Shown: in pieces, positions 24,382-52,459 of the stretch | How the letters are laid out: every line of letters starts with the position of its first letter | Position numbering within the stretch: position 1 is the stretch's first letter | Source of the DNA: a virus | IMG/VR virus record: IMGVR_UViG_3300017971_000207 | Coordinates: 64,001-128,000 of that record | Direction: 5' to 3' (one strand) | Length of the DNA: 64,000 nucleotides | Notes under the pieces: model-generated | The model's input: only the letters and a program-made list of their open reading frames with translations | Told to the model about the DNA's origin: nothing | Database searches by the model: none | Program-made: the position numbers and the translations under genes

Positions 24382-24738
24382 ATGAATCGTGAGCTAAACC
24401 GCTTGTTAGAGAGCGTACGTGCAGAGCTGGCAGAGGGCCTCCCCAAAGGGAAGTACCTGGGCCTACGAGACGCAAAAAGCATCGACATGAACCGTGTCCG
24501 GGTTGATCTAGAGACCACCTCTGGGGACAATCTAGGGGGCAACATCGAAACCCTCTTGAGAGGTGAGGACGATGTAAGGTGGCTTACGAGGCCGCCGCGA
24601 CGAGGGGAGGGCACCGCGAGCTTCACCATCTTCGTCCGGGACCCGGACGAGTTCAAGTACCTGTGGAACACGTTGGAGCGTGCAGAGATCTACGACGACA
24701 CTATCCTAAACTTCTACGTCAGCGTCACGGACATCTAG
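24382..24738 (+). CDS. Hypothetical protein with the shared N-terminal leader
   Basis: MNRELNRLLESVRAELAEG; AGGAG RBS. Confidence 0.7.
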   Translation: MNRELNRLLESVRAELAEGLPKGKYLGLRDAKSIDMNRVRVDLETTSGDNLGGNIETLLRGEDDVRWLTRPPRRGEGTASFTIFVRDPDEFKYLWNTLERAEIYDDTILNFYVSVTDI

Positions 24739-24747
24739 GATATCGAC

Positions 24748-25089
24748 ATGCACCACCTTCCCTTCTTACTCATGCTGGCCCTCATGGTCTGCATGCTCCC
24801 CGCCTGCCCGGACCCTGTCATCCCTGGCCCTCAATGGGACGGGGGGTCTGTTGAGCCCGACCCCGTTCTACCCCCTGGTGTTGATGCCAACGAGGCTGCC
24901 TGCAAGCGCCTAGAGGAGCTGCAGTGCAAGTCAAAGGATGGGCGCAACCTCTGGGAGCCCACACCCGGCGGCGTCTCCTGCGTCGACGTGTTCCGCAACG
25001 CAGAGAAGAATGGGGTCAACCTACACCCTGCGTGTTTGGCTAAAATAGAACGCTGTGAGGATAGGCATCGGTGTACCGACAAGGGCTAG
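24748..25089 (+). CDS. Cys-rich lipoprotein
   Basis: Signal peptide ending LPAC; six further Cys. Confidence 0.7.
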   Translation: MHHLPFLLMLALMVCMLPACPDPVIPGPQWDGGSVEPDPVLPPGVDANEAACKRLEELQCKSKDGRNLWEPTPGGVSCVDVFRNAEKNGVNLHPACLAKIERCEDRHRCTDKG

Positions 25090-25592
25090 TCCAGATGCGC
25101 CCATAAACGGCGTGTGACAAGTGCATGCACCAGGCTCTCACTGACATGGTACTTCTCCGCCAAGCTTCTCAGGGACACCTTTCGAGGGACGTATCTCCGC
25201 CTGATGTCTCGCACCTGTTCAGGAGTAAGCTTGGCGGACCCGTTGGCTTCGCCTGGGTGTGCAACGTGTCGTCCTTTGGACATCATGTCTCTCATGTTAT
25301 CCGTGTGGGTCCCAACCCACAGGTGCTCTGGGTTGACGCAGGGTGGGTTGTCACACTTGTGCAGAACACAGAGCCCCTCGGGTATAGGGCCGCGGGTAAG
25401 CTCCCAAGATACTCGGTGGGCATAGGTAGATATGCTGCTGAGTTCCTGTCGGCTCCCCTGCCTGAAGAACCCATACTGGGTACGGGAGTGTCGAGGACCC
25501 GTCCAAAGCCAACAATCTCCACTACAGTCCACATGTTTCCAGAATCGCTCGGTCTCGACCAGGCCGAAGGTAGTCTGCTGTCTTGCTGTCAT
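25086..25592 (-). CDS. Free-standing HNH homing endonuclease with a C-terminal HTH
   Basis: RFWKHV..CWLWTG..YAHRVSWE..VLHKCDNPPCVNPEHLWVGTHTDNMRD; GEANGSAKLT. Confidence 0.92.
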   Translation of the reverse strand: MTARQQTTFGLVETERFWKHVDCSGDCWLWTGPRHSRTQYGFFRQGSRQELSSISTYAHRVSWELTRGPIPEGLCVLHKCDNPPCVNPEHLWVGTHTDNMRDMMSKGRHVAHPGEANGSAKLTPEQVRDIRRRYVPRKVSLRSLAEKYHVSESLVHALVTRRLWAHLD

Positions 25593-25819
25593 GATGCAGG
25601 AGGCTCCGCAGGCGTACGAAGACCTCGGACCGCGACTAGCTGGGCTTCCAGAGATTGCTCTGCCTTCGGCAGCTCCTTGGCCAAGAACTCCCCCAACGCT
25701 TCCTTGATCAGCTTGTTTAGCGTAGTCTCTCTGTAGTCGGCTAGGAACTTGAGACGCTTGTGGGTAAAAGGATACAACCTAACAGTGATTTTGACAGGAT
25801 CTTCGTCTTTTGACTCCAT
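25589..25819 (-). CDS. Ribbon-helix-helix protein
   Basis: VKITVRLYPFTHKRLKFLADYRETTLNKLIKEAL; ATGA-coupled to the HNH gene. Confidence 0.7.
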   Translation of the reverse strand: MESKDEDPVKITVRLYPFTHKRLKFLADYRETTLNKLIKEALGEFLAKELPKAEQSLEAQLVAVRGLRTPAEPPAS

Positions 25820-25865
25820 AATAGGAGTATGGCGGCATACTCAAGAGTTGCCGTCAAACCAACCG

Positions 25866-25913
25866 AAGATCGAAAAGTGTGAGGACCGTCACAGCTGCAC
25901 CGACAAAGGATAG
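25866..25913 (+). pseudogene. Displaced duplicate of the lipoprotein 3' end
   Basis: Encodes KIEKCEDRHSCTDKG*, versus KIERCEDRHRCTDKG* at 25042-25089. Confidence 0.85.
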
Positions 25914-25916
25914 CCC

Positions 25917-27434
25917 ATGACCAGCAAGGCACAATTGACCGAGGAGATGCGGCGCCTGATGGGTGTTGCGCCACGACCGCTGGGGCCTTGGTCAGATAGA
26001 CCAGAGGAGACCTGGAAAGAGCCGATCACCACAAAGCTCGATGAGGCCAAGCTCAAGGTAGACTGGGACGAGGGGATAAAGATAGTCGACCAGGCTCTGA
26101 ACAAGCTTCGGACGACCGGCCCCAAGTGGCTGAAGGGCCTTGTAGGGGACGACTGGAAGGCAGGGAAGGTCCAGAAGACCAAAGGCAAAGGAGCCCAGAA
26201 GAAGTACACCGGGCGCCTTCGGCTCTTTGTGGGCCCCTCTGTCAGCAACGCCAGCAAGACCGTTGTGGTGACCCTGACGCAGACAGAGGCGCCGGGAGAG
26301 CACGACTACTACACCGGCGTATACACCACAGGGCTAATCGAGATCGACGCCTCCTGTAAGCTACTGTTGGGCAAAAAGGGTGTAGGCGGCGCCAAGGTGG
26401 GCCTACCCGACCTAAGCGCCATTCAGGACCTTACTGCCAGCGTGCTTACCACCTTTAAGCCTTACCTTGAAAAGCACTTTGGTAGCCCGAGTGGAGAGGA
26501 TGCGAAGGACCTCGCTAAGGATACCCTAAACGACGCGGCACAAGAGCTACTACCGTGGCTCAAGGGCCTTACAGGCGACAAGTGGTATGCTTCCTCAGTG
26601 GGCCCAGAGACGCTGCGACTCCACGTCGGTCTAAGCTACGCCGACGCGCCGATCTCGATGACCATAATCCTGAAGTACGACCCCATCAAGGGGACCTTCA
26701 CCGCAACAGCTCGCGCCTTCTCCGGGGAGGGGCTGATGGATAAGGTCACCAAGGACAATCTCAAGTCGGATGGTCTGCAGGGGGTTGTCGCCATCGCGAA
26801 AAGCTTACAGCCGGTGATAAAGCTGGCGTCCGAGGCTGCTCAAGAGGTCGCGGCGACGAACACCGAGGAGATCATCTTGGACGCTGTCGCGAACTTGGTA
26901 GCCGATGGTCTGGTGTGGCTAAAGGATGTAACCGGCGAACCGGACGGCTGGAAGATCACAAAACCTACGGAGCACGACCCCTGGATGTACTTCAACCTGA
27001 ACCCGCCGGGGAAGAGCTTCACCTTGACGGTCGGAGTGGTGGTTGACCCGTTGGACGAGGGCGAGGGCTTCCAGGTCATCACGGACGTTCTAGGCAAACA
27101 GGGACAGCCCTTTGCCCACCACGGTCCTGTGATCGCTAGTGAGGACGACCTAAAGGACCTAGTCAAGGTGGCTTTGAAGCCTGTTGAGAAGAACATCAAG
27201 GAGGTCATCAAAGCGGAGGGGGCCAAGGTCCTTACCTTGATCAAAGATATTCGCACAGACTACAAGAAGATGCGCAAGGGCCTTGTCATGGCACGTGCCG
27301 CCTTGGAGTTCGTCAGCGAGAAGCTAGAGGTGGAGGATTTCACGGGGGTCGAGGCAAAATGCCTGGAGTTCGAGGAGAAGCTCGGCGCGGCACTCGACAG
27401 CTCGAAGCAGCTTCGCTCAAAGCTCCCTTACTAA
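25917..27434 (+). CDS. Hypothetical protein, possible internal virion protein (three internal repeats)
   Basis: Leader LTEEMRRLMGVAPRPLGPW; repeated WLK(G/D)(L/V)(V/T)G(D/E)..W units. Confidence 0.7.
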   Translation: MTSKAQLTEEMRRLMGVAPRPLGPWSDRPEETWKEPITTKLDEAKLKVDWDEGIKIVDQALNKLRTTGPKWLKGLVGDDWKAGKVQKTKGKGAQKKYTGRLRLFVGPSVSNASKTVVVTLTQTEAPGEHDYYTGVYTTGLIEIDASCKLLLGKKGVGGAKVGLPDLSAIQDLTASVLTTFKPYLEKHFGSPSGEDAKDLAKDTLNDAAQELLPWLKGLTGDKWYASSVGPETLRLHVGLSYADAPISMTIILKYDPIKGTFTATARAFSGEGLMDKVTKDNLKSDGLQGVVAIAKSLQPVIKLASEAAQEVAATNTEEIILDAVANLVADGLVWLKDVTGEPDGWKITKPTEHDPWMYFNLNPPGKSFTLTVGVVVDPLDEGEGFQVITDVLGKQGQPFAHHGPVIASEDDLKDLVKVALKPVEKNIKEVIKAEGAKVLTLIKDIRTDYKKMRKGLVMARAALEFVSEKLEVEDFTGVEAKCLEFEEKLGAALDSSKQLRSKLPY

Positions 27435-27477
27435 GATGAACGCCATGAGATGACGAACAGGGAATGAGGAGAACAAG

Positions 27478-28215
27478 GTGAGCAAACTGCAAGAGCAGCG
27501 GCGATTGATGGGGCTAGAGCCTCGACCTATGGGGCCATGGGCTCAGGACGCAGAGGGCGCGGGTCCTCCTGATGAGGAGATAGTAGAGGCGACCCAAGGA
27601 CCCTGGGTAAAGATGAACCGCGCCCTCAAGAAGGCAGAAAAAGACGGGGTCTCCTGGATCAAAACGAACGTAGCCGACCGAGACTGGAAGACCTCCCTAA
27701 CCACGGCCGACAAGAATTACCCCTACGGGCGGCTGGAGATCTACCTTCTTAGCCCCGAGGGAGTTTTCGAGAAGAACCTCTGGGACCTGACCATCTACCT
27801 AACGTGGACCGCATCCTTAAGCTCAGACACAGACCCCAAGTTCAAAGCGCGCATCCGTTTGGAGGACAAGCAAGGCCAGGTTCACGTGGAGGAGACCAAG
27901 GAAGAGGTCAGCGCTGCGGACATCAAGGACCTCAAGAACCTGCTACTGCTGCCCAACAAGAAAGCTTTGGCCGATGCTTTTGCCCCCGGAGCCCAACAGA
28001 AGAAGTCGTTGAAGGACCTCCGGCGAGCATACAAGGATGCTCGCCAGAACCTCGTCTCTATGAGGGACAAGATCGAGGTTCTCAGCCAGCACCTAGAGAA
28101 AAGCGCGCTCGCGGATGTAAAGGATTCGGCTCAAGAGCTGTACAGCATGGAACTCAAGCTATCCTCAGCAATAAAGAAGCTGCGGAACTCTGCGGCCACC
28201 GCCGCAGAGTTCTAA
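27478..28215 (+). CDS. Paralogue of the preceding protein (single repeat unit)
   Basis: Leader LQEQRRLMGLEPRPMGPW; similar C-terminal helix KDLRRAYKDARQNLV versus KDIRTDYKKMRKGLV. Confidence 0.7.
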   Translation: MSKLQEQRRLMGLEPRPMGPWAQDAEGAGPPDEEIVEATQGPWVKMNRALKKAEKDGVSWIKTNVADRDWKTSLTTADKNYPYGRLEIYLLSPEGVFEKNLWDLTIYLTWTASLSSDTDPKFKARIRLEDKQGQVHVEETKEEVSAADIKDLKNLLLLPNKKALADAFAPGAQQKKSLKDLRRAYKDARQNLVSMRDKIEVLSQHLEKSALADVKDSAQELYSMELKLSSAIKKLRNSAATAAEF

Positions 28216-28217
28216 CC

Positions 28218-31200
28218 CTATCTTATCGGACAGCTTCCGCTAGCGCACGCCTCCTCAATCTCCATCTCACCGCCGTTGACCAGCGGGTGGTCGTGGTCGA
28301 TGTTGGAGGCTAGACGCTCAAAGGTCTCGCGGTCTATCGCCTCGTAGGGAGGCTGGGCGTAGCCATGAGCCTTGGGCAAGCAGGTGGTGCTCTTAAGCCG
28401 CGGCACAAACTCCCCGAGAAGAGCGGCAAGCTCCTCCTGCTCCGTATCGGCGTCAAAGGTGATAGTGGCACTGACGGCATTATCTGCCCAGTGCTCCTGT
28501 ACGGCCGCCTGCCGTTCAAACTGCTGGCGCAGCGTCTGCGTCTGCGCAGTCACGCGCCCCGCGGGCGTCGACTCTGCGAAGCTGAACACGATCGTGTTCC
28601 CTGTCTGGTCGTACACATCAAGCTCGTGCGGAACGCCAGCCTCCATAAGGGCGCCGGCTAGGTTGTCCGCAATGTCCAAGCGAACACGGCGGATGTAGTG
28701 GCGCGCGAAGGGGGCGTGGATGCCTGGCGAGCTGCGGCTTAGCAACGATATGGTGCCGCTAGGCTTAACGGTGGTAACGGTCTTGGGGATAGCTGTGCCT
28801 AGCTCAATGGCGTAGCGCGTAGCCTCCCTGCGACATGCTCCGTACCACGCATCGAGCTGTGCTGGCGTCCAGTCGAAGTCGCAGATACCCCCCAGCCCTA
28901 CTCCTAGCCTCATGTTCTGCTGCTGCACCGCGTTCGAGATGGGGTCCGTCAGCTTAGACAGTCGATTGCGAAAGCAGTAGCGCGTGACAAGGCGAAACAC
29001 CTCGTCAGCGTCAGTCGTATCGTGGAACCGTGAGGGGAACACCTCGGACAGGTTGCACGCCTCACGGTTGTACAGCGGCAGCTCGCCACAGTTGCCCGTC
29101 GCTACGCCGTCTGCAATGAAGGTCTCGTGCGTCGGCTGCTTGAGGCAGAACACCGGCTCGTGTCCGATAGGCTCGATGCTCACGATCTCCGTGGTGAACC
29201 GCTCCGCATAGGGTCCCCTCTTCCACGAGCTGCGCCAGCTTAGATAGCGATCCTCCATATCCTCTCGGAGGAATCCGAGCTGCTCATAGAAACGGACCGC
29301 GTTGGCCTTTGAGACAACAAGGTCGTACTGCGTCTTGCACCAGTAGTCAGCAAGGTCCCCCTTACCATCAGGCAGACGGCGATAGCCTGCGTCTCGCCGC
29401 TTGTAGACGGACGACACGATGCCGAAGTTTAGGAGCAGCGTTTGAACATCACGGAGAAGAGCTGGGTTGCTCTGCGACAGACGGACGGAGAAGGTCTGCT
29501 TTTCGGCTGTCCAGTTTATCTGACCGTCTGTTGCGAAGAGGCCGCGGAGGTAGCCGCGGACGCACTTTTTGGTCCCGCGCCACACCACCTCTGGCACAGA
29601 GCCCTTCTCACGATAGCCTACCTCAGCCAGGGCACGGCTTAGCAGCGAGCTGCAGATGTCCTCGTAGCGATCATACACTTGACAACCGAAGCGCTTCAGG
29701 TGCCCGTTACGCGGCGCTACGGAGGCCGCTACCTCGTGGCACCACGCTAGATATTGCCCGGACATCTTGCGCTTGGCGTCCCAGAAGAATAGATGAGCGC
29801 GCTTGCCGTCCTCGCTCCAACAGCCGTCACCTTCGAGCCACCCAATAACATGCCCGAGAGCCTCGCTGCCGTCCGCCCCCCACAAACCCTCGCCGGATTG
29901 AAGTAGCAAGGTATCTCCAGGAGACAGGTCCTTAAGCTCCACAAAACCGTCGGGGGTCGGGAAGCGGTGATACGCCGTAGCCTTGATCTCGTTACCGTGC
30001 CGGGTCCGCATCCGGTAGACCTTCTCGGAGGCGCTTGTCTGGAAAGCCGCCTCCGCCTCGCGATGCACCGCTCCAGGCGAGACGTTCGTACGGTCCGTGC
30101 CGACACGAGCGTCGGTGGTGACCTGGAAAGCTTTGGCGTCCTTGAGATCTCGGATGGGTATTAAGCCCCATTGCGTGACGACACGGGTGTCGCCGGTGAG
30201 GCAGGGGTTGATCCCAACGATACCGGGGTCCGTCTCACGACATAGAGGGAGGTTGAACACACCAGGCTCGCCACCAGGCTCCGCAACGATGTCCGAAACG
30301 AGCTGGCGCCAGTCAAACCCCTCCAGCTCCTCCCTGCTTTGGAAGGCCAACGAGTTGTTGCTGGTGTGCCGATGCAAGGTTACCAGGCTCAGGTCCTTCT
30401 TCGCATTCCGGAAGGCTTGGTCGGTCGGGCTCCCCAAGGTCATCAAGGCGGAGTTGTGGACGAGCAAGCCGTTGCAGACAAACTCCTCAGCACCAGCTAC
30501 CTCGATATCGTAGGTGTCCGCGGTCTCGTCCGTCTCGGTCACGTCCTGCACACAGATGGGCACGAGACCCTGAGCTTCTCCGCCCAGCTCTTCGTAAAGC
30601 GGGAAGACCATCTGTTTGCTGGTTGAATCCCACCGACCTTTCCAGAAGGTGGTGCTGTGTTCTGCGCGCACCATCTCGGAGGGGTAGCCGTAGTCACACT
30701 GAGACACCGCGCTTACACGGACGCGCTTGGTCGCGTGGGGCTGCACTAGCTCCAGAAAGCGGGCCGTCGCGGTCCGTCCCACCAGATTGAGGTGGTACAT
30801 AGGCTGCCAAGACCCTCTAGCAGAGCGATTAAGCTTCAACCTCGTCGGTATTCCCAGGCTCGCGTAGACCGCCTGCACCTGCTCCAGGAAGGAGGGGTAC
30901 ACCGAGGCGCAGAGAACCACGGGGCGATTGCGTGCTGCACCGTCCGCATCTAGGAGGCCCGCCAGGTAGGAGGCTCGAACATGGGGGAGCCCCTCCAAGA
31001 TGAACGACGGCACGTTAAGAGGCTGACGGGGTTTCTTCAGATTATCGTCCAGGTACCAGGCTAGCTGCTTGGACTGTGCTCGTATCCTTAGACAGTCGTC
31101 GAGGGCTCGTGGGGGGCGCTCGTTGAGCCGGACCCCGTAGCGCGTCAATTGCTCACGGCATCTGTTTGCTATTGCGTTGTGATAGCCGTCGTTAGCAACT

Positions 31201-33401
31201 ACCACAGAAACATAGGCGTTGAACCCGTCGTCGCGTCGGTTGGCCCTGGTGTAGCCGTCTCCCTGAAAGTAGCCAAGAAACCAAGCGCTCTGCTCATCTA
31301 ACCGCGGAACGGTTATATCGACGCACGTCGTAGAGTGTTTCGGCTTGTCGTAGGACCACGAGGGCAGCTCAGTAGGACGCCCTGGTAGAATGGCGTCGAC
31401 AAACACCATACGGTCCCCTGGCTCCAGCTCTTTAGCCTCTTTGAACTCGTAGCGGCCGGGGGCTGTGAGGACGGCCACTCGATGGTTTCCGGTACAACGA
31501 AAGACGCCCATTTGCGTGGTCAGCTCGTAAAGAGCCTGAACGCCCTGGTGTACGTGCTCCGAGACCTTAGCAAACTTCGAGCCCCCTGTGAGAACCTCAT
31601 CGCCTACCGCAACGGCCTCGATAGGCTTCAGCCCGTTCTTGGTGTGAACCAAGGAGCCTTCGGGGAGACAGCGACGCACGTTGCCTGCCTTCACGCATAG
31701 CCCGATGTAGTTGGTGACATCCAGGCAGTCGATCGAACTAAGCCTCCGACCCCGAGCTCGACGGACAACCTCCCAGCAGGACCTCAGCATATGAGTTAGC
31801 GGGCCAGGGCCGCCGGCCACTCCGCCAAAGGTCCGGATGGGTGTACCTCGCGGGCGCACGCGGGACACGTCAATGACCACATCAACCCCCTGGAAGGCTG
31901 AGAGCAGCACCTCACCTAACGCCTTCATCCAGCCCTCACGTGAGTCCTCTACATCGTAACGGTGTGTGCTCCCGTTGAGCATCTCTCCGCTGTACTTCGA
32001 CACCTCGGTGTAGTTGGGGTGGTCCAGCCGACACTCGATGAACAGACGCGGGTTGCCTGGGGCAACAGGAGGGAGTGCCCCAATGTTATCGAGCCCTACA
32101 CCAACGCCTCCGCCAAGCATGAGCTGCTCAGACGTCCACACCCAGTCGTCCACGCCGGACAGCTGCACAAACCAGCAGTTGCCCGTTACTACGCCCCCCT
32201 CCAAGGTAAAGCTACCTGTCTCGGGCTCGGTAACGCAGAAGACCTCCTCTTCTTGTCCCTCATCCACGATCTCTCGCACGGTGTAGCGGGTAGGCTCGGG
32301 AACGACTGTAAGAATCTCCAGGCGTCCTGAGCGTATACCGTAGTTTGTCTCAGTGCTTGGATCCGTTGACCTACCAGTAACGCAGTATCCTAACAGTGGC
32401 GCACGCTCAGCCACCCAGTCCAACGCAGCGCTGTTCTGGGAGGACAGGCGATTGCTGGGCTTCCCCGGTCTAAGAGAGCCATCAGCTGCTAAGAGTCCGG
32501 CGAGAAAACCGGCCTGGTAAACAGTATCCAACCTGGTTGGGGGCAGGCTCTTGAGATCCTCCACAGACTTAAAGAACAGCACAGGCTCTCCATCCTGAGA
32601 AGGCGGCGTGCACGTGTACGAGAAGAAGCTAGCCCTCTCCAACCGCTCTCTGTGAGCAACCTTCTTACCGCACAACCGTAGCCTAAACGTGCTGAGCTTG
32701 AGCGTCTCACGGCTCCCATCTCCAAAGATGAGCCCATGAGCAAACCCATCGTTGAACGTCTTGGGGTCGCATCCTTCAAGCTCTTTTGCGCAAGCGGGTG
32801 TTACTAGGATCTGGTCACCCACCCGGAGGTCTGTGACCTCCCCGCGGTTCGAGGTGAACCAACGGTGCTCGGCTGTAGCTGTGAACTCAAAAGCGAAGCT
32901 GGACCTTAGCCCTGTAGGCTTCATGCGATAGCGGAGGAGCCGTTGCCTACCAAAGGACCTAACCTTTGCTGGACGCCATTGCCCATCCTTGGTCAACACC
33001 TCTACGGTTTCTCCTACCGCCTCCTCCAAGGTTGCAAGAACACCGTTGGCCCAGAAGCGAGTACCTCCCGAAAAGCAGTTGAACCGAGCGTTAGCAGGGA
33101 TGCCTGGCACACCACCGGTCCATAGCCCGCGACCGGGGGGCAACGCCTGGCAGGTCCAGAAGAGCTCAAACAGCCGCTCAGCCTCGGCGCGGCAGGGGCT
33201 TGGAGCCAAGGACACATTACCCTCCACCACGCGGCGGATAGTGTCGGTCCACGACTCCTCGTTGCGGCAGTACTTCGTTAGGTAGGTGCTACGGGAGAGT
33301 ATGCTCTCGAACGGGTCGCGGGCCCTCCTGTATGGCTCCAGGAAACGCTCCTGAAGCCGAAATTCCTGCGTCTCACGGGCCTTGACGACGATCTGCTGCA
33401 T
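28218..33401 (-). CDS. nrdJ: Class II (B12-dependent) ribonucleotide reductase with three inteins
   Basis: PPGRGLW, FN|C, GGGVG, GNVRR|SA, NP|CGE, TTVKPSGTIS, C-terminal CASGSCPIR. No adjacent nrdB. GGAG RBS before ATG 33401. Confidence 0.93.
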   Translation of the reverse strand: MQQIVVKARETQEFRLQERFLEPYRRARDPFESILSRSTYLTKYCRNEESWTDTIRRVVEGNVSLAPSPCRAEAERLFELFWTCQALPPGRGLWTGGVPGIPANARFNCFSGGTRFWANGVLATLEEAVGETVEVLTKDGQWRPAKVRSFGRQRLLRYRMKPTGLRSSFAFEFTATAEHRWFTSNRGEVTDLRVGDQILVTPACAKELEGCDPKTFNDGFAHGLIFGDGSRETLKLSTFRLRLCGKKVAHRERLERASFFSYTCTPPSQDGEPVLFFKSVEDLKSLPPTRLDTVYQAGFLAGLLAADGSLRPGKPSNRLSSQNSAALDWVAERAPLLGYCVTGRSTDPSTETNYGIRSGRLEILTVVPEPTRYTVREIVDEGQEEEVFCVTEPETGSFTLEGGVVTGNCWFVQLSGVDDWVWTSEQLMLGGGVGVGLDNIGALPPVAPGNPRLFIECRLDHPNYTEVSKYSGEMLNGSTHRYDVEDSREGWMKALGEVLLSAFQGVDVVIDVSRVRPRGTPIRTFGGVAGGPGPLTHMLRSCWEVVRRARGRRLSSIDCLDVTNYIGLCVKAGNVRRCLPEGSLVHTKNGLKPIEAVAVGDEVLTGGSKFAKVSEHVHQGVQALYELTTQMGVFRCTGNHRVAVLTAPGRYEFKEAKELEPGDRMVFVDAILPGRPTELPSWSYDKPKHSTTCVDITVPRLDEQSAWFLGYFQGDGYTRANRRDDGFNAYVSVVVANDGYHNAIANRCREQLTRYGVRLNERPPRALDDCLRIRAQSKQLAWYLDDNLKKPRQPLNVPSFILEGLPHVRASYLAGLLDADGAARNRPVVLCASVYPSFLEQVQAVYASLGIPTRLKLNRSARGSWQPMYHLNLVGRTATARFLELVQPHATKRVRVSAVSQCDYGYPSEMVRAEHSTTFWKGRWDSTSKQMVFPLYEELGGEAQGLVPICVQDVTETDETADTYDIEVAGAEEFVCNGLLVHNSALMTLGSPTDQAFRNAKKDLSLVTLHRHTSNNSLAFQSREELEGFDWRQLVSDIVAEPGGEPGVFNLPLCRETDPGIVGINPCLTGDTRVVTQWGLIPIRDLKDAKAFQVTTDARVGTDRTNVSPGAVHREAEAAFQTSASEKVYRMRTRHGNEIKATAYHRFPTPDGFVELKDLSPGDTLLLQSGEGLWGADGSEALGHVIGWLEGDGCWSEDGKRAHLFFWDAKRKMSGQYLAWCHEVAASVAPRNGHLKRFGCQVYDRYEDICSSLLSRALAEVGYREKGSVPEVVWRGTKKCVRGYLRGLFATDGQINWTAEKQTFSVRLSQSNPALLRDVQTLLLNFGIVSSVYKRRDAGYRRLPDGKGDLADYWCKTQYDLVVSKANAVRFYEQLGFLREDMEDRYLSWRSSWKRGPYAERFTTEIVSIEPIGHEPVFCLKQPTHETFIADGVATGNCGELPLYNREACNLSEVFPSRFHDTTDADEVFRLVTRYCFRNRLSKLTDPISNAVQQQNMRLGVGLGGICDFDWTPAQLDAWYGACRREATRYAIELGTAIPKTVTTVKPSGTISLLSRSSPGIHAPFARHYIRRVRLDIADNLAGALMEAGVPHELDVYDQTGNTIVFSFAESTPAGRVTAQTQTLRQQFERQAAVQEHWADNAVSATITFDADTEQEELAALLGEFVPRLKSTTCLPKAHGYAQPPYEAIDRETFERLASNIDHDHPLVNGGEMEIEEACASGSCPIR
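29091..30203 (-). mobile_element. Intein (371 aa, LAGLIDADG, ends GN)
   Basis: CLTGDT...TAYH...IGWLEGDG...LRGLFATDG...ADGVATGN|C (the +1 residue is the thiyl-radical Cys). Confidence 0.93.
30453..31670 (-). mobile_element. Intein (406 aa, LAGLIDADG)
   Basis: CLPEGS...TGNH...LGYFQGDG...LAGLLDADG...NGLLVHN|S. Confidence 0.94.
32178..33077 (-). mobile_element. Intein (300 aa, LAGLIDADG, ends GN)
   Basis: CFSGGT...TAEH...HGLIFGDG...AGLLAADG...GGVVTGN|C. Confidence 0.92.
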
Positions 33402-33465
33402 AGCTTCTCCACGCGCACGCTTGCCCGCCAAGAGGCCCGCGCCTCCTGCGGGTCTTTTTGGTTAA

Positions 33466-34035
33466 TCACGAGGTGAGGAGGTCTCGGACCTCCGCCTCTA
33501 AGCTCTCCACGACTCCCAGCTTGGGAGGATCGTCCGAGAGCTTAAACCGGACCTGCAGCAGGTCATCCTGGCTGTCTCCTCCCCATAAAGTGGTCGAGTC
33601 CACCGTCCCCACGATGGGCTCATCAAGCGTTATCTCATAAGGCGTGGGGCTGTAGGATAGCGTGATGTGCGGCTGATAGTCCGGGAACTTCTTCGAGAAC
33701 GGGACACCCCCGGCATCGAAGGCGCGCGCCAACTGCGCGCGCAGCTTCATAAGCGCAGGGCTGAGCACCTTAGCGATTATTGGGTGTCCGGGCTTGTCGT
33801 CCGGGTTCTCAGGGAAGTAGGACACCTCCCTGACCACTACCTCGAACGGCGGTGTGCGGTCCATGATGGGGGCCGCAATCTCTATCGCGCCACCCAACGT
33901 GTGCAAAGGCACTCCCTTGCCGAGGTAGAGCATCGTGATGTGGTGGCTGTTTGCCCCCACATGCTCCCCAGGACAGCCGATACTTCTAAGGCGCTCACTG
34001 AGCGCGGGTGACATGGCTACCCCTAAAAACGACAT
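33466..34035 (-). CDS. 2H phosphoesterase
   Basis: Two HxT motifs: HITMLYLG and PHITLSY. Confidence 0.88.
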   Translation of the reverse strand: MSFLGVAMSPALSERLRSIGCPGEHVGANSHHITMLYLGKGVPLHTLGGAIEIAAPIMDRTPPFEVVVREVSYFPENPDDKPGHPIIAKVLSPALMKLRAQLARAFDAGGVPFSKKFPDYQPHITLSYSPTPYEITLDEPIVGTVDSTTLWGGDSQDDLLQVRFKLSDDPPKLGVVESLEAEVRDLLTS

Positions 34036-34207
34036 CCCTTGGTTCTACCACGATTCGAGGCTAGTTAGCATCTTTACGACACAGCCCTTAGACGGCCTCT
34101 AATCATCTCCAGCAGATAGCCCCTGATGGCGTTTCTGAAGCGAGCTGATGTCGTCCGAAAGCCCCGTATAATCCTGCATCAGCGAGCACGGGGCCACACC
34201 CGCCTCT

Positions 34208-34870
34208 CTAGTCTACCTTGAAAGGGCGGAAGCTCCGCCGGTGTATCTCGCACGGCCCCAGCCGCTCAATCGCGTCCATGTGGGCCTTAACGCCGTAACC
34301 CTTGTGGGCTGCGAAGCCGTAACCCTTGTAGGTATCAGACAGCTCAACCATGAGCCGGTCTCGAACCACCTTCGCGAACACGCTAGCCAAGGAGACCGCA
34401 GGCACCAGCCTGTCGGCGCGCGGAAGACAGACAACCTCAGCTACGTCCGGCTTGCCTATAGCGGGAAGCCTCATCCCATCGACCACAACAAAAGGGGGAT
34501 AGGCCAGCCGGTAAAATGTGGCGCGGATAGCCTCGGCTTGGGCGTCCGCCTGCGCTGCATCAATGTCTCCCTTGTCAATCTCGGCCGCGCTCACCTCCCC
34601 GATACCCACGACCACGTGGTCGTCATCCTTTAAGCTCTCAAAGAGCTGCTCTCGCCGCGCGGGGCTGAGCCGCTTGGAGTCGGTTAAAAGCTTGGGGGGC
34701 TTCCAGTCAATCGAGACCGCTGCTGCAGCCGCTACAATCGGCCCTGCTAAAGCTCCACGCCCCACCTCATCCACTCCCACGATGGTTCCCGGACGGAGGA
34801 GCTTTAGCAGCGCAGCTAACATCGCGAGGTTTTGCTGGTCAACCTCTTCTTTGCTCAGCGTATCAGTCAT
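34208..34870 (-). CDS. rnhB: Ribonuclease HII
   Basis: GVDEVGRGALAGP, DSKRL, VDG, AKVVRD, HKGYG, HRRSF. Confidence 0.95.
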   Translation of the reverse strand: MTDTLSKEEVDQQNLAMLAALLKLLRPGTIVGVDEVGRGALAGPIVAAAAAVSIDWKPPKLLTDSKRLSPARREQLFESLKDDDHVVVGIGEVSAAEIDKGDIDAAQADAQAEAIRATFYRLAYPPFVVVDGMRLPAIGKPDVAEVVCLPRADRLVPAVSLASVFAKVVRDRLMVELSDTYKGYGFAAHKGYGVKAHMDAIERLGPCEIHRRSFRPFKVD

Positions 34871-35717
34871 GCTTGCCCCCCAATAGGGGCGCTGCAGCAA
34901 TGCCCGAGACTAGACCTCTGCCTGCCACGCCAATCGCCGACGGCACCCACCCACACCCCTTGACGAAAGCCTCCGCTGCCTCCCGCGTTTGACCTTGCTC
35001 CGAGTAGCACTTAGGAGAGCCGTCGCCATAGACCCCATGGGTAGACCAATCCTTGTCGGATCCCTTGGGTTCGCAGAGCCAGTCTATGAGCGCCTCCGCA
35101 GTTGCAAAGACCGGGCTGCAGGGGCTCCCCTCCGAGACCGTCTCCCAGACCTGCCATCCTGGACCCGCTGGGGGTGGTGTGGGCTCCCACGCATCGTAAT
35201 CGTCCTGAGCGTCGGGGTGCATCGCCGAGCCCTTACAGACCGGACAGACGCCCCAGGAGTCCGGGTCTTGCCCCGCCAGCTCCAAGAGCCTCTGAGCAAG
35301 CCGCCATCGCGCTGAGCCGCCAAAACCAAAGGGACCATCCAGCTCTGTCTCGGACAGCTTCTCCACTAAGGTGAGAAACTCCGGGGAGGGAGGCAAGACC
35401 TTGGGGCGGCGCACCCACCCAAGGCGCCCGTCCGGCGCACGGGTGATCTCCCCTTTAGCTGTAGGGGCCAACGCAAACTCTTGCAGATAGGGGTGGGGGT
35501 AGCTCTGAGTGCGGCGGTCCATGACCGCCGCTTGCTCTCCCACCAGTGTGATGAATTGGCAGATAGATTCGAGCCATGCCCCCGCCGTGGTACGACCATT
35601 AACACACTCGTCTGGGGCCTTTGGGCACGGGCGTCCATGCGGGTTGAGGTAGCCCTCCCACACCTCCCCCCATTTGCCGTCAAAGTCTAACACCACTCGC
35701 TTGATCTCTCGTCCCAT
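34863..35717 (-). CDS. Phage hypothetical protein with CxxCxG motif
   Basis: MGREIKRV...CPVCKGS...PPAGPGWQVWETVSEGSPCSPVF. Confidence 0.65.
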   Translation of the reverse strand: MGREIKRVVLDFDGKWGEVWEGYLNPHGRPCPKAPDECVNGRTTAGAWLESICQFITLVGEQAAVMDRRTQSYPHPYLQEFALAPTAKGEITRAPDGRLGWVRRPKVLPPSPEFLTLVEKLSETELDGPFGFGGSARWRLAQRLLELAGQDPDSWGVCPVCKGSAMHPDAQDDYDAWEPTPPPAGPGWQVWETVSEGSPCSPVFATAEALIDWLCEPKGSDKDWSTHGVYGDGSPKCYSEQGQTREAAEAFVKGCGWVPSAIGVAGRGLVSGIAAAPLLGGKHD

Positions 35718-35739
35718 CTTAATCCTCCGTCCACACAGC

Positions 35740-35991
35740 TCAGTCCCGCTCCACAAAGACCCCCGGTCGAACCTCCTGGTAGCGTCTCTGCCGAGGCTTG
35801 AGAAAGCTCTGCATGATGCTTGCCCAGACCTTACTGTCCTTGAAATCCGTTCCCTTGGGATATCGCCCGAGATGGGTAAGGAACGGCTCGTGATCTCCTA
35901 TCCCCAGCCTGTTCAGGATTCGAAGGCAACGCATGCGATGAAAGCCGGTAACCTCCTTCATCCGGACAGAGATATCATACAGCTCCGCCAT
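35740..35991 (-). CDS. Hypothetical protein
   Basis: Operonic ORF with a GAGG RBS. Confidence 0.5.
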   Translation of the reverse strand: MAELYDISVRMKEVTGFHRMRCLRILNRLGIGDHEPFLTHLGRYPKGTDFKDSKVWASIMQSFLKPRQRRYQEVRPGVFVERD

Positions 35992-36280
35992 CCTCTCCCT
36001 CCTTACCGCCGTACTCCGCCGAGAACGCCTCCTCTAGCGCCGCAATCGCTCCATGCACCTCGGGCCCCAGCTGGGCCTGGTAGGGCTGTAGAACGTCAAG
36101 GAGACCCTCTGCTGCCCGCGCTATCGGGCAGGGCTCGGCCGCGAGCTCCGCTAGCTCCGCGACATCTACCAGCATCGCGCGAAGCGACTCAATCCTCTCG
36201 GCAGAGGGCAGAAGCGAGGCAGGCTCGCGCAGCCTCGCTAAGATTGATTTGACCAGCTGGTGTCGACGTAATGCTCCCAC
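35975..36280 (-). CDS. Hypothetical protein
   Basis: Operonic ORF. Confidence 0.5.
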   Translation of the reverse strand: MGALRRHQLVKSILARLREPASLLPSAERIESLRAMLVDVAELAELAAEPCPIARAAEGLLDVLQPYQAQLGPEVHGAIAALEEAFSAEYGGKEGEDGGAV

Positions 36281-42054: not shown

Positions 42055-42210
42055 AGGCACTGATACTACCACATAGGGGGCGGATGGTCAATCGGCGGCG
42101 CCTGCGGCCGTCCGGGGCAAAAGCTCCCTAGACCTCGTGGACCGACCAGCGACCAATTGTAGTCCGCAAGCTCCCTTGGAGAGCTCAGGGGAGTTTGGTA
42201 GACTCGGGGG

Positions 42211-42762
42211 ATGCTGCTGCAGGAGAAGATCAGGAGATGCGAGGATATCCTGGAAGCAGCCGGGCGTCCGCGGAGGCGGTACGCCCGGTGGGCGGAGGTA
42301 GAGGAGCTGGCGTCCGTGATCGCGGATAAGCTCCTGGTGTCTCTACTCTACGCTCGTGGCAGGGAGGCCAGCAGCGATTTTGGCGGCCTTGTCTCGGACC
42401 TTATCGAAGGCCCCTACGCCGCGCTCCTGATTCTCCGAGACGCTTTCAAGGCCGCCAAGATGACCAAGGTCTCAAGGGCGCTGGATGCTTGGGCTTCTAA
42501 GCACACTCCCATCCGGCCGGAGGAGGAGCTAACCGACAAGGAGCTGCGAAGGTCCGAGAAGGCTCTAAGCCGCGCCCAGACCCGCGCCGCCAACATTCGG
42601 GACGCCATACGCTTCGGGCGAAGGGAGAAGCTTTACGAGGTCGAAGATCTTCGAGTCGACCTGCTGGAGCTAACTCTGATGCTGGCAGATGTCCTTCCCC
42701 TGCTGGGCTACCATACTGGAGGCCGCACCCTGGCGCAGCTGGTCCACACCATCCAGCTTTAG
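42211..42762 (+). CDS. Helical hypothetical protein with the shared leader
   Basis: MLLQEKIRRCEDILEAA. Confidence 0.7.
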   Translation: MLLQEKIRRCEDILEAAGRPRRRYARWAEVEELASVIADKLLVSLLYARGREASSDFGGLVSDLIEGPYAALLILRDAFKAAKMTKVSRALDAWASKHTPIRPEEELTDKELRRSEKALSRAQTRAANIRDAIRFGRREKLYEVEDLRVDLLELTLMLADVLPLLGYHTGGRTLAQLVHTIQL

Positions 42763-42773
42763 GAGAGTCCGCC

Positions 42774-43298
42774 GTGGAACTGTATGAGAAGATCAAGAAG
42801 TGCCGAGACATCCTAGAGGCTCCCAGGCCCACCCTAGATATGCCGAGCTGGGAGGAGGTGGAGGTCGACCTCCGCGCCTCTCTGTCCGAGCTTGAGCTCG
42901 CGCTGTCCTACGCAGATGGACGTCGCCAAACATTAGGGGAGCCCACGTCACACGCGGTAGCCGCCGACGTACGCAACGCGGCTCTAGATCTCAGCGCCGC
43001 GATGAAAAGCGCGGGCCTCTGGAGGATCAATCGCGCCGTAGAGCGCTGGTATGACAACCACGTCGGCCGCCAGCCCGAGCGCGACGTAAGCCTGGCAGGT
43101 ATCCGCACCGCACAGCCAAAGCTGGCCGGGCTCCGCGCAGGTACCGAGGCAGTGCTAGGCAGCATTCCTAGGCTCCCCGATGTTGCTGAGCTTAGAGGAG
43201 ACCTGGCGACGCTCTTGCGTCTTTACGGCCCAATTCTGACCTCGTTGGGGTTCACCAGCGCGGGCGCAGATATTAGCAGAATTGCTCAAAGCGCTTAA
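42774..43298 (+). CDS. Paralogue of the preceding protein
   Basis: MELYEKIKKCRDILEAP; shares W.EVE, L.YA.GR and LR.DL..L...LG motifs. Confidence 0.7.
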   Translation: MELYEKIKKCRDILEAPRPTLDMPSWEEVEVDLRASLSELELALSYADGRRQTLGEPTSHAVAADVRNAALDLSAAMKSAGLWRINRAVERWYDNHVGRQPERDVSLAGIRTAQPKLAGLRAGTEAVLGSIPRLPDVAELRGDLATLLRLYGPILTSLGFTSAGADISRIAQSA

Positions 43299-45584: not shown

Positions 45585-45588
45585 GGGA

Positions 45589-46345: not shown

Positions 46346-46372
46346 GTGCTCCCTCCGTTGCTGGCTGCTGTG

Positions 46373-46437: not shown

Positions 46438-46538
46438 GCTCGGAGCCTTAGCTATCCTCGTGCTCCAGGATTGACGCGAGGACTCCCAGCAGGACGATCA
46501 CAGCGAGCATTATTCCGACCTTGAGCATAGGAACGGGC

Positions 46539-47632: not shown

Positions 47633-47673
47633 AGCCCCGACCCTAACAGGTGCGCCCGCAATTGTCAAAAAGG

Positions 47674-48711: not shown

Positions 48712-48804
48712 CTCCGTCCTCCTACCACTAAGACGGCGCAGCAACCCCACAATCTGACAACACTCGGTCAACAATTGTAGTGGTGTCTAGCTCCCCGTTC
48801 CTGG

Positions 48805-49041
48805 TCACACCAAAGGACCCTGCATCAGCTCGTCGTAGCTAAACTGCTTACCCAGAGCATCGTGGATGGTGACGGTTCCCTTGCTATCATCTAGCTCCCA
48901 GCAGCGGCCGCCGTAGTCCCAGGCTATCCGCGGAACCGAGACGCGGCCGTGCACGAAGTCGATACCCAGCTGAGTCGGCCGCCATCGGCCTGAGTTGCTA
49001 GGATCCTTTTTCCCCTTGGAGGGGTCCTTGTGCGTCTGCAC
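48805..49041 (-). pseudogene. Possible 5'-truncated gene remnant
   Basis: Protein-like 78 aa frame without an RBS, flanked by two copies of the CAATTGTAG motif. Confidence 0.3.
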
Positions 49042-49208
49042 CAGCTTCCAGTACGGAGGGTTGTCAAGGACGTAGTGTGAGGGTGGGTCAACAATTGTAG
49101 TCCGCTGTCCTCCGCTGTCCTCCGGTGTCCTCCTCCTCGCTGCCCACGTTCCTGTGGGATAGTAGTGGAAGAAGGTAGGCGGCTGGCGGAGTGTGATAGA
49201 GTGGGGGC

Positions 49209-50021
49209 ATGAACCGGGAGATCAACGAGCGGCTGGATGATGTCCGAGCGCTGCTGGAAAGCTTTAAGCCTCCTGCTAACGTCGCTAAGGCGGCCGCACG
49301 CGGGCTGGAGTACCGGCGTAAGCAGACGGACAAGGCGGGGCTCACACCAGCTCAGGCGGCAAAGGCGGGCATAGGCAGCGGAGTACAGCGAGCGGTCAAC
49401 CTCAAGAACCGGGATCGCATCAGCCTCAAGGTCATCAAGCAGATGAACGCCTTCTTTGCTCGGCACGCCAAGAACGCAGCGGTGGATGCGAAGCATCGCG
49501 GGGAGCCCTGGAAGGATAAGGGCTATGTGGCGTGGCTGCTGTGGGGTGGGGACGCCGGGCGGTCATGGGCCCGAAAGGTGCTCAAGAAGCAGCTGAAGGA
49601 GGCGGACGAGGGGGGCCTGTCTGTCCGAGAGGTGGTGGAGCGCTGGAGGCGGGGAGAGCGTGCGGGCAACGGCGCGGTGCTCTGGTATCCGGCTCGGGAG
49701 CTTTGGCCATATCGCGAGCACACGTGGACGCGGGATACGGCTCGGCCGGGGCTGGCCTGGGTGGAGGGTCAGCAGCTGTGGCTTGACGGTGATGTGAAGT
49801 GGGATGCGCTGCGGGCCGACATGCAGGCTCGGGGCTGGGATGAGGATGAGCCGCTGCTGATGCGGGTTGGGAGGAACGGCGTAGCGCTGCTAGGGGAGGG
49901 GAACCACAGGCTCGCTATTGCCCGAGAGCTTGACCTCATGGTGCCGGTGGAGCTGCAGTTTGAGCAGCGGGTGGTCAACGAGCGGGAGGTTATGGTTCGA
50001 GAGCTTGGGGGCCGCGGCTAG
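49209..50021 (+). CDS. Two-domain protein: AWLLWGG domain plus ParB/Srx-like domain, with the shared leader
   Basis: MNREINERLDDVRALLES; GYVAWLLWGGDAG; LGEGNHRL. Confidence 0.75.
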   Translation: MNREINERLDDVRALLESFKPPANVAKAAARGLEYRRKQTDKAGLTPAQAAKAGIGSGVQRAVNLKNRDRISLKVIKQMNAFFARHAKNAAVDAKHRGEPWKDKGYVAWLLWGGDAGRSWARKVLKKQLKEADEGGLSVREVVERWRRGERAGNGAVLWYPARELWPYREHTWTRDTARPGLAWVEGQQLWLDGDVKWDALRADMQARGWDEDEPLLMRVGRNGVALLGEGNHRLAIARELDLMVPVELQFEQRVVNEREVMVRELGGRG

Positions 50022-50779
50022 AGCTCGTCGTCGTCCGGATATAGCCGTTGCAGCTCTGACCACTCGTCGGAGACCACGCGGGCTACGGCTTTAAGGACCA
50101 GGCGATTGTTGGCGGAGGTGAGGTCGCGTCTGATGCGCTCCCATGTTGCCGAGCTGTCGAGAGCGGATTGGATCATGTCTGAGCTTGGGGGTCCTACAAA
50201 GAGCCAGCCTCCATCATCCTGTCCGAGATGGTGGAGGTATGCGAGGGCCTCATCTGATATCTGCTGCATGAAGGCTCGGACCTCTGAGGGGCGGTTGTGG
50301 TAGTCGAGGCCCTTCTCGGGCTTAAGCAGATCACGAAGGTGCGTTACCTCATGCACCAGCACGGAGTAAAGCTCATCCTCCACCTCGCTCATGTTGGCCA
50401 GGAGCTCCGATGGGCTTCGTTGGCTATTTAGCCCGATAAACAGCAGGTGCTTTACCCCGTAGGAGGTTGGGGTGTCGTGTGTGCTGAGCACGTTGCCTCC
50501 GGTTACGTAGCGCCGGGGGCTCCGCCACGTGCGCGGCTCCTCAACGCGTAGCGTCACGTCGACCTTGACAGGAGCACCTCGGACGTCCGTGGTCTCGTAG
50601 GCTCCCAACGACCAGCTACGCCGCCGCAACGGCCGCTCTGAGGGCTTCAGCTTCCTCCTCAGAAGGCTGATGGCCTCCTTGGCTAGCTGCCTTGCCTGCC
50701 TCTTATCAATGGGGATAGGTCGGCCCTCCCCCAGCTCTAGGCGTATCCTGGAGAGGATACTGTTGATGCTTTCTCTCAT
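50018..50779 (-). CDS. Zincin-like (HExxH) metallopeptidase with the shared leader
   Basis: MRESINSILSRIRLELGEG; VHEVTH...PSEVRA. Confidence 0.7.
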   Translation of the reverse strand: MRESINSILSRIRLELGEGRPIPIDKRQARQLAKEAISLLRRKLKPSERPLRRRSWSLGAYETTDVRGAPVKVDVTLRVEEPRTWRSPRRYVTGGNVLSTHDTPTSYGVKHLLFIGLNSQRSPSELLANMSEVEDELYSVLVHEVTHLRDLLKPEKGLDYHNRPSEVRAFMQQISDEALAYLHHLGQDDGGWLFVGPPSSDMIQSALDSSATWERIRRDLTSANNRLVLKAVARVVSDEWSELQRLYPDDDEL

Positions 50780-50780
50780 G

Positions 50781-51332
50781 CTAAACAGCCTCCAAAGGGG
50801 TTGGGCTGAAGTGCTCCCGACACCGTGCTGTGTAGTGCTTGGTGCTCCCAATAAGCACCTCCTCAGTGCTGGCCGTCAGGCGCTGAGAGCGTGTGGCGTC
50901 TGCTCCGCAGACAGTGCAGACCGCATATAGCTGGATGATGTGATCGGCGACCGCCATAAGCGACGGCATCGGCTCCCAAGGCTCCCCTCGCCAGTTCAAC
51001 GATAGCCCCGCAACCACCACCCGGATGCCCCGGTCCGAGATAGCCAGGACGTTGGCCGACAGCCCCTTGTCGAACAGCTGCCCCTCGTCAATCAAGACCA
51101 GCTGCGTCTCAGGCAGGAGATGCTCCTTGATGGCCGCAGAGTAGGGAACGGTCGTGGCATCCAGCTCGCGCCCCCCGTGGGTACGGATGACGGTTGATCG
51201 TGTGTCCTTGGCCGGCTTGAACGCCTGGAAGGGCTGTCGGGCGTATGTGGCGCGCTCAGCGCAGCTGATAAGCTCGTCCGTCTTGCTCGCAAACATCGGG
51301 CCCGCGATAACCTCTATTCGTCCTTTGGTCAT
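50781..51332 (-). CDS. tdk: Thymidine kinase
   Basis: GPMFASKT, IDEGQ, VAGL, CTVCG...Y.ARCR. Confidence 0.95.
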   Translation of the reverse strand: MTKGRIEVIAGPMFASKTDELISCAERATYARQPFQAFKPAKDTRSTVIRTHGGRELDATTVPYSAAIKEHLLPETQLVLIDEGQLFDKGLSANVLAISDRGIRVVVAGLSLNWRGEPWEPMPSLMAVADHIIQLYAVCTVCGADATRSQRLTASTEEVLIGSTKHYTARCREHFSPTPLEAV

Positions 51333-51397
51333 CCGAGGAGGATATCAGGAAGGAGGTCTAGGGGGTACATGCGGAAGCGGTAGCGACCGCGTGGTCG

Positions 51398-52459
51398 CTA
51401 CCGCTTGTACCCCCGCAGCAGTGCTTTCTCTAGAGCTTGTAAGCTCAAGGTCGGATGGCCTCCTCCCAGCATCGCCCATATGTCATTGTAGCTGCTTCGC
51501 AGCCAGCTACGAAGCTGCTCCGCGGTCCACCCGTCACGCTTGGCCTGCCGTCCAGTGGTGATAGCTGCGCTCTCCATTCGCATTGCGGGTGGGTCCCCTT
51601 GGAATAGATCGAAGGCGCGAGCCGCATGTGATGCCAGCTGCTGCGCCTTTATTGGATCAATAGGTTTTTCCTTTACCGCGCTCTTTCCGCTAAGCCACGC
51701 TTCAAAGGCGTCGAAGAGCTCCGGAGCCGTGCGCTCCATATGCTTGGGCGCCAAAGCCCACCAGGCTGCGGCCTCCATGGTGCCCTCTAGATCTCCTGCT
51801 AGACCATGATAGACCGACACCCCCTTACCCCAAGCCTTGAGGGCTTTGGTTGCAAGAGCCCCAGCTGCAGGGTCCTTGGCGTATACCGCGTGGGCGGCCT
51901 CATGTGCTGCTGTCTTCGACCCGTGATGAACCTTGGTTCCCCCAACCTCTGTTGTGTTGTCTAGGTGGGCGTTAACCACTCGGGCGCGCCCCGCCAAGCT
52001 GTCCCCCTCAACATCCCCGTGAGGCTTCACGAAGAACTCGATCTTAATGGTCGGTAGAACCCTCTTAGCCGCCCGCGTCGCCTTTGCGAGGTTGGCCTTC
52101 CCCCCATCCGAAGGTTTCCAAGGACGCTCCTTCGCGGGAGGAGGCGACATCTTAACTATCCGATCAACCTCTTTAACCCATCGCTCCAGCTCCTTAAGCT
52201 TCCCTACAATCACCCCCACGCTGCCGTCGCGGCCGTGATATACGAGCCAGCCGTCCTTTAGCTCGTAGCGAGCGATAGCCATGGGAAAGGTGTCGTCCGT
52301 GTCTGGTGGTTCGGCCCACACCTTTCCTATTCCGGGAACCGCTACCATGGCGACCTTTCCCCCCACACTGCGTCGAGCCTGCTTCCGTAGATTCGGCGCG
52401 GCTGCGGCCTCCCCTAGGATCATTCTACACCGCTCGATCTTCTCAGCTAATGTCCGCAT
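51398..52459 (-). CDS. HExxH metallopeptidase-like protein with the shared leader
   Basis: MRTLAEKIERCRMILGEAA; AHEAAH. Confidence 0.65.
   Translation of the reverse strand: MRTLAEKIERCRMILGEAAAAPNLRKQARRSVGGKVAMVAVPGIGKVWAEPPDTDDTFPMAIARYELKDGWLVYHGRDGSVGVIVGKLKELERWVKEVDRIVKMSPPPAKERPWKPSDGGKANLAKATRAAKRVLPTIKIEFFVKPHGDVEGDSLAGRARVVNAHLDNTTEVGGTKVHHGSKTAAHEAAHAVYAKDPAAGALATKALKAWGKGVSVYHGLAGDLEGTMEAAAWWALAPKHMERTAPELFDAFEAWLSGKSAVKEKPIDPIKAQQLASHAARAFDLFQGDPPAMRMESAAITTGRQAKRDGWTAEQLRSWLRSSYNDIWAMLGGGHPTLSLQALEKALLRGYKR

Follow-up and report, generated by a model that had tools for sequence, protein, structure and literature searches.

In phage T4, a short capsid-targeting sequence (CTS) at the N terminus of the internal proteins IPI-III and Alt is removed by the prohead protease gp21 (Mullaney and Black 1996, as cited in PMC9958956, PMC3012670, and PMC5694885). 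Apart from this conserved sequence the internal proteins are diverse (PMC3012670), and the CTS loads them into the scaffolding core (PMC3012670, PMC9958956, PMC5694885); such sequences comprise 10 to 20 residues, and all proteases of the family cut after the Glu of a short motif (PMC5694885, PMC9958956). Here we describe a family of N-terminal leaders that, judged by alignment, heads at least eleven proteins of an uncultured phage. The analysis starts from a 64,000-nucleotide stretch (herein the window), positions 64001 through 128000 of a single 145,433-bp viral contig (IMG/VR record IMGVR_UViG_3300017971_000207; 60.6% G+C). The best explanation of the leaders, in which we place moderate confidence, is that they are capsid-targeting propeptides of a T4-type head-assembly system.

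Among known systems, the T4 CTS is the nearest to the leaders. The two resemble each other in that a short N-terminal tag, ending hydrophobic-x-Glu, stands on diverse, non-essential-looking proteins (the putative cargo) whose genes are scattered over the genome; the phage also has homologs of gp20, gp21, and gp23, and its cargo genes vary among related phages. The leaders differ in length (15 to 18 residues versus ∼10 in T4), in forming at least two related classes plus a third motif, and in the number of carriers, at least 11 as against a handful in T4. Propeptides are also cut from head and ejection proteins of the giant phages phiKZ, 201phi2-1, and SPN3US by gp175/gp245-type proteases at S/A/G-x-E (PMC5694885, PMC7411985). 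Likenesses to that group are a related protease family that cuts after Glu, N-terminal propeptides thought to be prohead-targeting, and paralogs with conserved N termini and diverged bodies. The propeptides of the phiKZ group are, however, mostly >100 residues long, with a small residue rather than Leu/Ile at P3, whereas the tags here are short, T4-like in size, and borne on unrelated bodies.

On the whole contig, of which the completeness is estimated at 64% by CheckV, 167 genes were called by a simple procedure based on codon scores and ribosome-binding sites; the starts of the leader genes are backed by leader homology, neighboring stop codons, and homolog alignments. An earlier note, written from the letters of the window and their open reading frames, had listed eight leader-bearing genes on both strands, and all eight N termini are present with the same starts and strands. 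Genes in the window are named below by the position of their first base. The type 1 leader (consensus MNRELNxxLExVRxELxE, then G, A, or S) is present at the start of seven genes genome-wide, three of them in the window: 24382..24738 (+; 118 residues), with a leader of residues 1 through 18 (24382-24435) ending L-A-E before G; 49209..50021 (+; 270 residues), with a leader of residues 1 through 17 (49209-49259) ending L-L-E before S; and 50018..50779 (−; 253 residues), with a leader of residues 1 through 18 (50726-50779) ending L-G-E before G. The four type 1 genes outside the window, taken from the whole-contig gene calls, comprise two within the tail-gene block (contig 12786-13112 and 13152-13529, both −) and two near contig 133 kb (132951-133460 and 133530-133892, both −); a weaker, leader-like member from the same calls lies at contig 134187-134714 (−).

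The type 2 leader (consensus xxEKIxRCxxILxE, then A) heads three genes. In 42211..42762 (+; 183 residues, with a helical body) and its paralog 42774..43298 (+; 174 residues, GTG start), the leader spans residues 1 through 15 and ends I-L-E before A; in 51398..52459 (−; 353 residues), the body of which is unrelated to those of the other two, it spans residues 1 through 17 (52409-52459) and ends L-G-E before A. We treat types 1 and 2 as one family of ∼11 genes because they align in one register and the Cys of the type 2 leaders is also present in one type 1 member. Every type 1 and type 2 member has L/I-x-E at the junction, followed in all but one by G, A, or S. The type 3 genes, 25917..27434 (+; 505 residues) and its paralog 27478..28215 (+; 245 residues, GTG start), share a conserved N-terminal motif, with L-D-E before A at residue 43 in the former and I-V-E before A at residue 37 in the latter; the body of the gene at 27478 aligns to the C-terminal part of the gene at 25917. 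As the type 3 pair and the type 2 pair at 42211 and 42774 are tandem paralogs with related bodies, the earlier proposal of three leader subtypes on differing bodies stands for type 1, the seven bodies of which have no detectable mutual similarity, and for type 2 through the gene at 52459; it falls for type 3 and for the 42211/42774 pair.

The profile analysis of N termini that the earlier note had suggested shows the leaders to be a discrete family. Run against the six-frame translation, a profile of the seven type 1 leaders recovers exactly those seven, all N-terminal, at expect values (E) of 3e-11 to 9e-9; its next match, at E 0.29, is the type 2 leader at window 52459. In a pairwise comparison of N termini, 26 of 12,720 protein pairs reach a similarity score of at least 35, compared with 2 pairs for internal segments and 1 for shuffled N termini. 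The leaders are strongly amphipathic, with hydrophobic moments of 0.33 to 0.77 (0.25 ± 0.15 for other N termini). Mean DNA identity among the type 1 leaders is 55%, and different codons are used at 91 of 171 identical residues; leader conservation lies in the peptide and not in the DNA.

Three bodies, those of the genes at 49209, 50779, and 52459, were searched against external proteins; they fall in three different families, and in each the homology begins right after the leader Glu. With the 49209 protein as the query, 3,214 relatives were found at E ≤ 0.001 in a full scan of 1.84 billion representative proteins, and in ∼140 of the best 150 of these the match begins at query residue 17 or 18. 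Where the 49209 protein has its leader, relatives of this module normally open with KYxHI-DFKPP; one relative has a 12-residue N terminus ending L-L-E before G. As judged from these alignments, the leaders are genuine modules, sharply bounded after Glu.

Residues 18 through 135 of the 49209 protein form a widespread module of large multidomain phage proteins; it is found inside proteins of up to 1,879 residues (range 1,400 to 1,900), where its partners include 2H phosphoesterase, pyrophosphatase, poly(A) polymerase, topoisomerase IB, and C39 peptidase domains. L-K-E precedes A at residues 129 through 132, at a domain boundary, and the second domain (residues ∼134 through 263) is probably ParB/Srx-like. 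For this C-terminal half, modeled at a predicted local distance difference test score (pLDDT) of 60 to 74, the top Foldseek rows are mostly sulfiredoxin, ParB, Noc, and SbnI, all at E ∼0.5 to 1; Pfam gives no match for ParB/Srx.

In the family of the 50779 body, both the opening RPIPIDK and an HExxH are invariant. The closest homologs have a different helix that ends [IL][VI]E before A, and more distant ones have N termini ending L-K-E, L-N-E, or L-L-E before G or A; overall, some homologs carry other helices ending [LIF]xE before A/G and many have a short, unrelated N terminus. Some large phages have the domain at the C-terminal end of a long protein, with L-E before G ahead of it. On the IMG/VR contigs L026 and L028 (8051-10771, +), the HExxH module is C-terminal in a stop-to-stop frame of 907 codons and is preceded by W-L-E before G, a joint that looks like a head-protease site inside a multidomain cargo protein. 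HExxH is also invariant in the family of the 52459 body, the homologs of which have variable N termini (the ending is L-x-E before G in two, V-x-E before A in one, and neither of these in three). Pfam gives no match that would support a zincin-like metallopeptidase for either the 50779 or the 52459 body. Across all eight bodies, Pfam and PHROG give nothing useful except one unnamed PHROG family for the gene at 49209, and the body of the gene at 24382 matches neither database.

The putative cargo, which looks like a set of invasion-phase effectors, includes the 49209 module with the probable ParB/Srx domain fused to it, a pair of differing HExxH proteins, and several small proteins without known relatives. 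Phages and conjugative elements encode polyvalent proteins, of which the ParB-like, 2H, and pyrophosphatase modules are predicted virion cargo that is delivered with the phage DNA (Iyer, Burroughs, Anand, de Souza, and Aravind 2017; PMC5512222). The likeness is that the 49209 module is shared with giant chains and followed by a probable ParB/Srx domain, and that the HExxH module of 50779 occurs C-terminally in the 907-codon frame; the difference is that the modules here are separate small proteins, each with its own leader, and that no MuF anchor domain was seen among them.

A gp21-type prohead protease, which the earlier note had named as something to look for, is encoded on the contig and matches Pfam Peptidase_S77 above the curated cut-off (63.8 bits against a cut-off of 27 in the genome scan; E 1.1e-16). 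It also matches the structure of T4 gp21 (5JBL) at E 8e-10 and carries the PHROG label head maturation protease. In the alignment to 5JBL, a His and a Ser within conserved GELDHP and VSSRG blocks stand opposite two Ala of the deposited chain, which we take to be the catalytic His and Ser positions, mutated for crystallization. The protein has 533 residues: the N-terminal 180 form the Peptidase_S77 domain and are followed by a long coiled-coil tail (∼350 residues) that is presumed to be scaffold-like; T4, in contrast, has a separate gp22 scaffold. The head module, assigned from Pfam, PHROG, and structure matches, occupies contig 23.7-37.6 kb (−). A gp23-type capsid gene (Pfam Gp23 E 1.9e-73; T4 gp23 structures E 1e-27) lies beside the protease gene, and a gp20-type portal gene (Pfam Portal_T4 E 4.2e-65), interrupted by an intein with a LAGLIDADG domain, lies nearby. 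The module also encodes two acidic paralogs with a common N terminus and a 318-residue protein with no assigned function. In the core protein adjoining the protease, an N-terminal SLxEDLxxIGL motif is kept in four of four phages. By these homologies, a T4-type head module and protease are present in the phage.

By homology, the phage is related to T4 only very distantly. The identity of its capsid protein to the best matches among 50,697 phage records is at most 35 to 37%, and these best matches are uncultured metagenomic phages; the nearest named isolates by this protein are Bacillus phage SP-15 and Listeria phage LIS04 (31 to 33% identity). A megablast search of 20 kb of the window against the same records gave no match and no near relative. 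The three closest relatives found (G001 through G003) have capsid proteins 69 to 83% identical to that of this phage and are represented by 42 to 51% of their genomes. A fourth, distant phage with an S77 protease (G004; 44% G+C) has a capsid protein 34% identical and the same protease-tail fusion. In comparison with related phages, the cargo genes are located in variable regions.

Leader-like N termini recur on head proteins of these relatives. In G001 through G003, proteins encoded between terminase and capsid genes (a set that excluded the portal, protease, and capsid protein) make up six of the top 10 among 255 proteins ranked by N-terminal similarity to the leaders (Mann-Whitney p = 1.8e-5); the same ranking with internal segments gives p = 0.9. 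G004 has a leader of its own (core ESIRQVLRxxLLxE), common to three adjacent genes with unrelated bodies, one of which is a homolog of the 50779 protein, and the two best matches to this trio are encoded just upstream of its protease gene (p = 0.036). These rankings give moderate support to a link between the leaders and the N termini of head-module proteins. The N terminus of the capsid protein and a protein encoded between terminase and portal look type 1-like by eye and score at control level, and we make no claim for them. In G002, a very basic, Lys- and Cys-rich protein of 174 residues (61550-62074, +) is a candidate DNA-binding internal protein; its N-terminal motif, LLEDLQGLL, is also present in the small protein whose gene immediately precedes the portal gene.

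The type 1 leader itself recurs in one other phage. In the 20.8 kb read of a 69.8-kb metagenome contig (L046), which also encodes a homolog of the 50779 protein (54% identical), the leader MNTRFNRLLEDIRDDLHE, followed by A, heads a body without similarity to any protein of this genome; its pairwise score is 55, against a control maximum of 35 to 40, and the type 1 profile finds it at E 9e-5. The same contig encodes a protein of 148 residues (14853-15299, +) that weakly resembles this phage's protease domain (23% identity across 123 residues; E 4e-8) and may be a small protease paralog. Further searches were negative: a 22-column leader profile gave no match in related phage records, a local profile search of related contigs recovered no type 1 leader, and one carrier, compared by tblastn with the 50,697 phage records, gave matches at chance level only.

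The leader profile, the gp21-type protease, the sharp junctions, and the head-protein N termini of related phages together support the capsid-targeting interpretation that the earlier note had put forward. In the mechanism we infer, the amphipathic N-terminal helix of 15 to 18 residues would attach the protein to the prohead's scaffolding core. Once the shell had assembled, the gp21-type serine protease would cut after the Glu of the terminal L/I-x-E and the severed tag would leave the head; the mature protein would remain inside with the DNA and be delivered into the next host. Binding of the tag to the core, cutting at Glu, and packaging and injection of the cargo are all predictions from the genes.

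Several results weigh against this interpretation. In the genome itself, N termini of head-module proteins are not significantly leader-like (p = 0.30; best rank 17 of 155), and the head-module gene set was fixed after a first look at the data; because of that choice, the head-protein link is counted as moderate support only. The bare pattern [LI]xE[GAS] occurs within the first 32 residues of 21 of the 167 proteins; nine of these are members of the leader family, and the remaining 12 equal the chance expectation (∼12.7). The signal is therefore the homologous leader and not the tripeptide. In the three closest relatives, neither the type 1 leader nor any homolog of the cargo bodies is present within the available 42 to 51% of the genomes. 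When the leader alignment was used in a word-based search of 5.8 billion proteins, only this contig's own proteins were returned, and a DNA-pattern scan of IMG/VR, with a pattern too strict for the L046 variant, found no type 1 leader beyond this contig. Finally, two type 1 genes and the leader-like gene are directly followed, on the same strand, by a radical-SAM/SPASM gene.

We consider it unlikely that the helix is an uncleaved docking or oligomerization module for a partner other than the prohead core, such as a chaperone, a membrane, or a tail component, with the terminal Glu incidental. An amphipathic helix would suit this function, and two type 1 genes do lie inside the tail gene block. 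A conserved head protein family encoded next to the portal gene has a similar helix followed by GSYE, and in this genome's copy the Glu is replaced by Arg, so that a similar helix need not be a cut site. Against this, AlphaFold models of two carriers (50779 and 49209) place the leader in a separate helix of lower confidence, followed by an extended linker; in the 50779 protein the leader helix has a pLDDT of ∼66 in a model of 90.8. Three of the body families are, moreover, widespread without the helix, and the L/I-x-E at every type 1 and type 2 junction, with G, A, or S next in all but one, is the cut site of the protease family (PMC5694885). Fold searches of both carrier models gave no confident match; for the 50779 model there was no Foldseek match at E ≤ 0.001, and the best VIA-align hit (Z 6.5) covers the helical tail only.

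The radical-SAM/SPASM gene (contig 132055-132930, equivalent to window 68055-68930 and thus outside the window, −; Radical_SAM E 2e-14, SPASM E 1e-5) raises the alternative that the leader is the recognition sequence of a maturase, akin to the leaders of ribosomally synthesized and post-translationally modified peptides (RiPPs) but serving many substrates; the enzyme would bind the helix and modify the tagged proteins. RiPP leaders likewise have a common N-terminal recognition helix, three carriers here are directly followed by the enzyme gene, and the enzyme is nearest to peptide-modifying enzymes such as PqqE, although below every equivalog cut-off. A Cys also occupies the same alignment column in 5 of 11 leaders. 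It is absent, however, from the leaders of homologs and from that of L046, and only one of five clusters of leader genes adjoins the enzyme, the other four lying elsewhere; the chance of such an adjacency is estimated at ∼0.07. Unlike RiPP precursors, the carriers are full-size proteins at five loci with no conserved core motif after the leader; the substrates would be enzymes of 100 to 350 residues scattered over the genome, and a maturase would not predict the similarity to head-module N termini. Nor is the linkage seen in other phages, with no Radical_SAM match in G004, which has its own leader family, or in G001 through G003 (all incomplete contigs). Peptide patterns found no homolog of the enzyme in IMG/VR, and the sole match in the phage collection is a bacterial pyrroloquinoline quinone operon filed as phage. 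On balance a maturase is a decidedly unlikely explanation of the leaders; within a capsid-targeting system, the adjacent enzyme may modify some of the tagged cargo before packaging.

Plain paralogy, with one ancestor and a slowly evolving N terminus, or a regulatory or recombination element at the DNA level of the 5' end is very improbable, despite the tandem paralogs of types 2 and 3, several type 1 bodies that are small orphans of possible common descent, and a −10-like element just before the ATG of three leader genes: the bodies of 49209, 50779, and 52459 belong to three external families with homology starting right after the leader, and the leader DNA is 55% identical, with over half of the identical residues recoded.

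Other features of the window and contig were recorded alongside. The element before the leader genes 42211, 49209, and 52459 is an extended −10-like TGnTAGAnT (window ∼42196-42204, +; 49194-49202, +; 52467-52475, −), followed by a G-rich spacer of 6 to 7 bases and the ATG; because it sits before the start codon, transcription could be leaderless, with the mRNA starting at or next to that codon, or the element could mark a phage-specific promoter class. A common late promoter upstream of leader and head genes was looked for and was not established. Immediately upstream of the 52459 leader gene, an R2K-clade ATP-grasp protein is encoded (window 52465-53193, −; Pfam R2K_2, E 7e-38). Inteins carrying a LAGLIDADG domain are also present in a 1,036-residue protein (window 21259-24369, +) and in a class II ribonucleotide reductase (window 28218-33431, −). 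Proteins of the tail-fiber region (contig 10699-12656, −) have a separate, MAVITNLT-like N-terminal module in copies weaker than those of G003, where (18723-36462) it is close in three proteins (152 to 853 residues) and weaker in a fourth (205 residues); this module is probably a virion-attachment domain unrelated to the leaders.

Read as capsid-targeting propeptides, the leaders represent a known kind of system in a new lineage, the concept having been established for T4 since 1996; the value lies in its breadth and in a defined cargo list rather than in a new principle. We suggest tentatively that tagging and fusing might be interchangeable delivery routes for the same effector modules, such that modules of the polyvalent type would here be unbundled into a dozen tagged proteins, each bearing one of two or three address classes that the prohead core would read and the head protease would cut. 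Should that be true, the effectors that an uncultured phage injects could be read from sequence alone by means of the tag. If the tag has the proposed function, ∼8% of the phage's genes would encode capsid-borne proteins active at the very start of infection, when phages encounter host defenses; for most of the tagged proteins no function is known. In that case the tag would help to find candidate counter-defense and host-takeover proteins in uncultured phages and might also be a portable signal for loading foreign proteins into non-T4 capsids.

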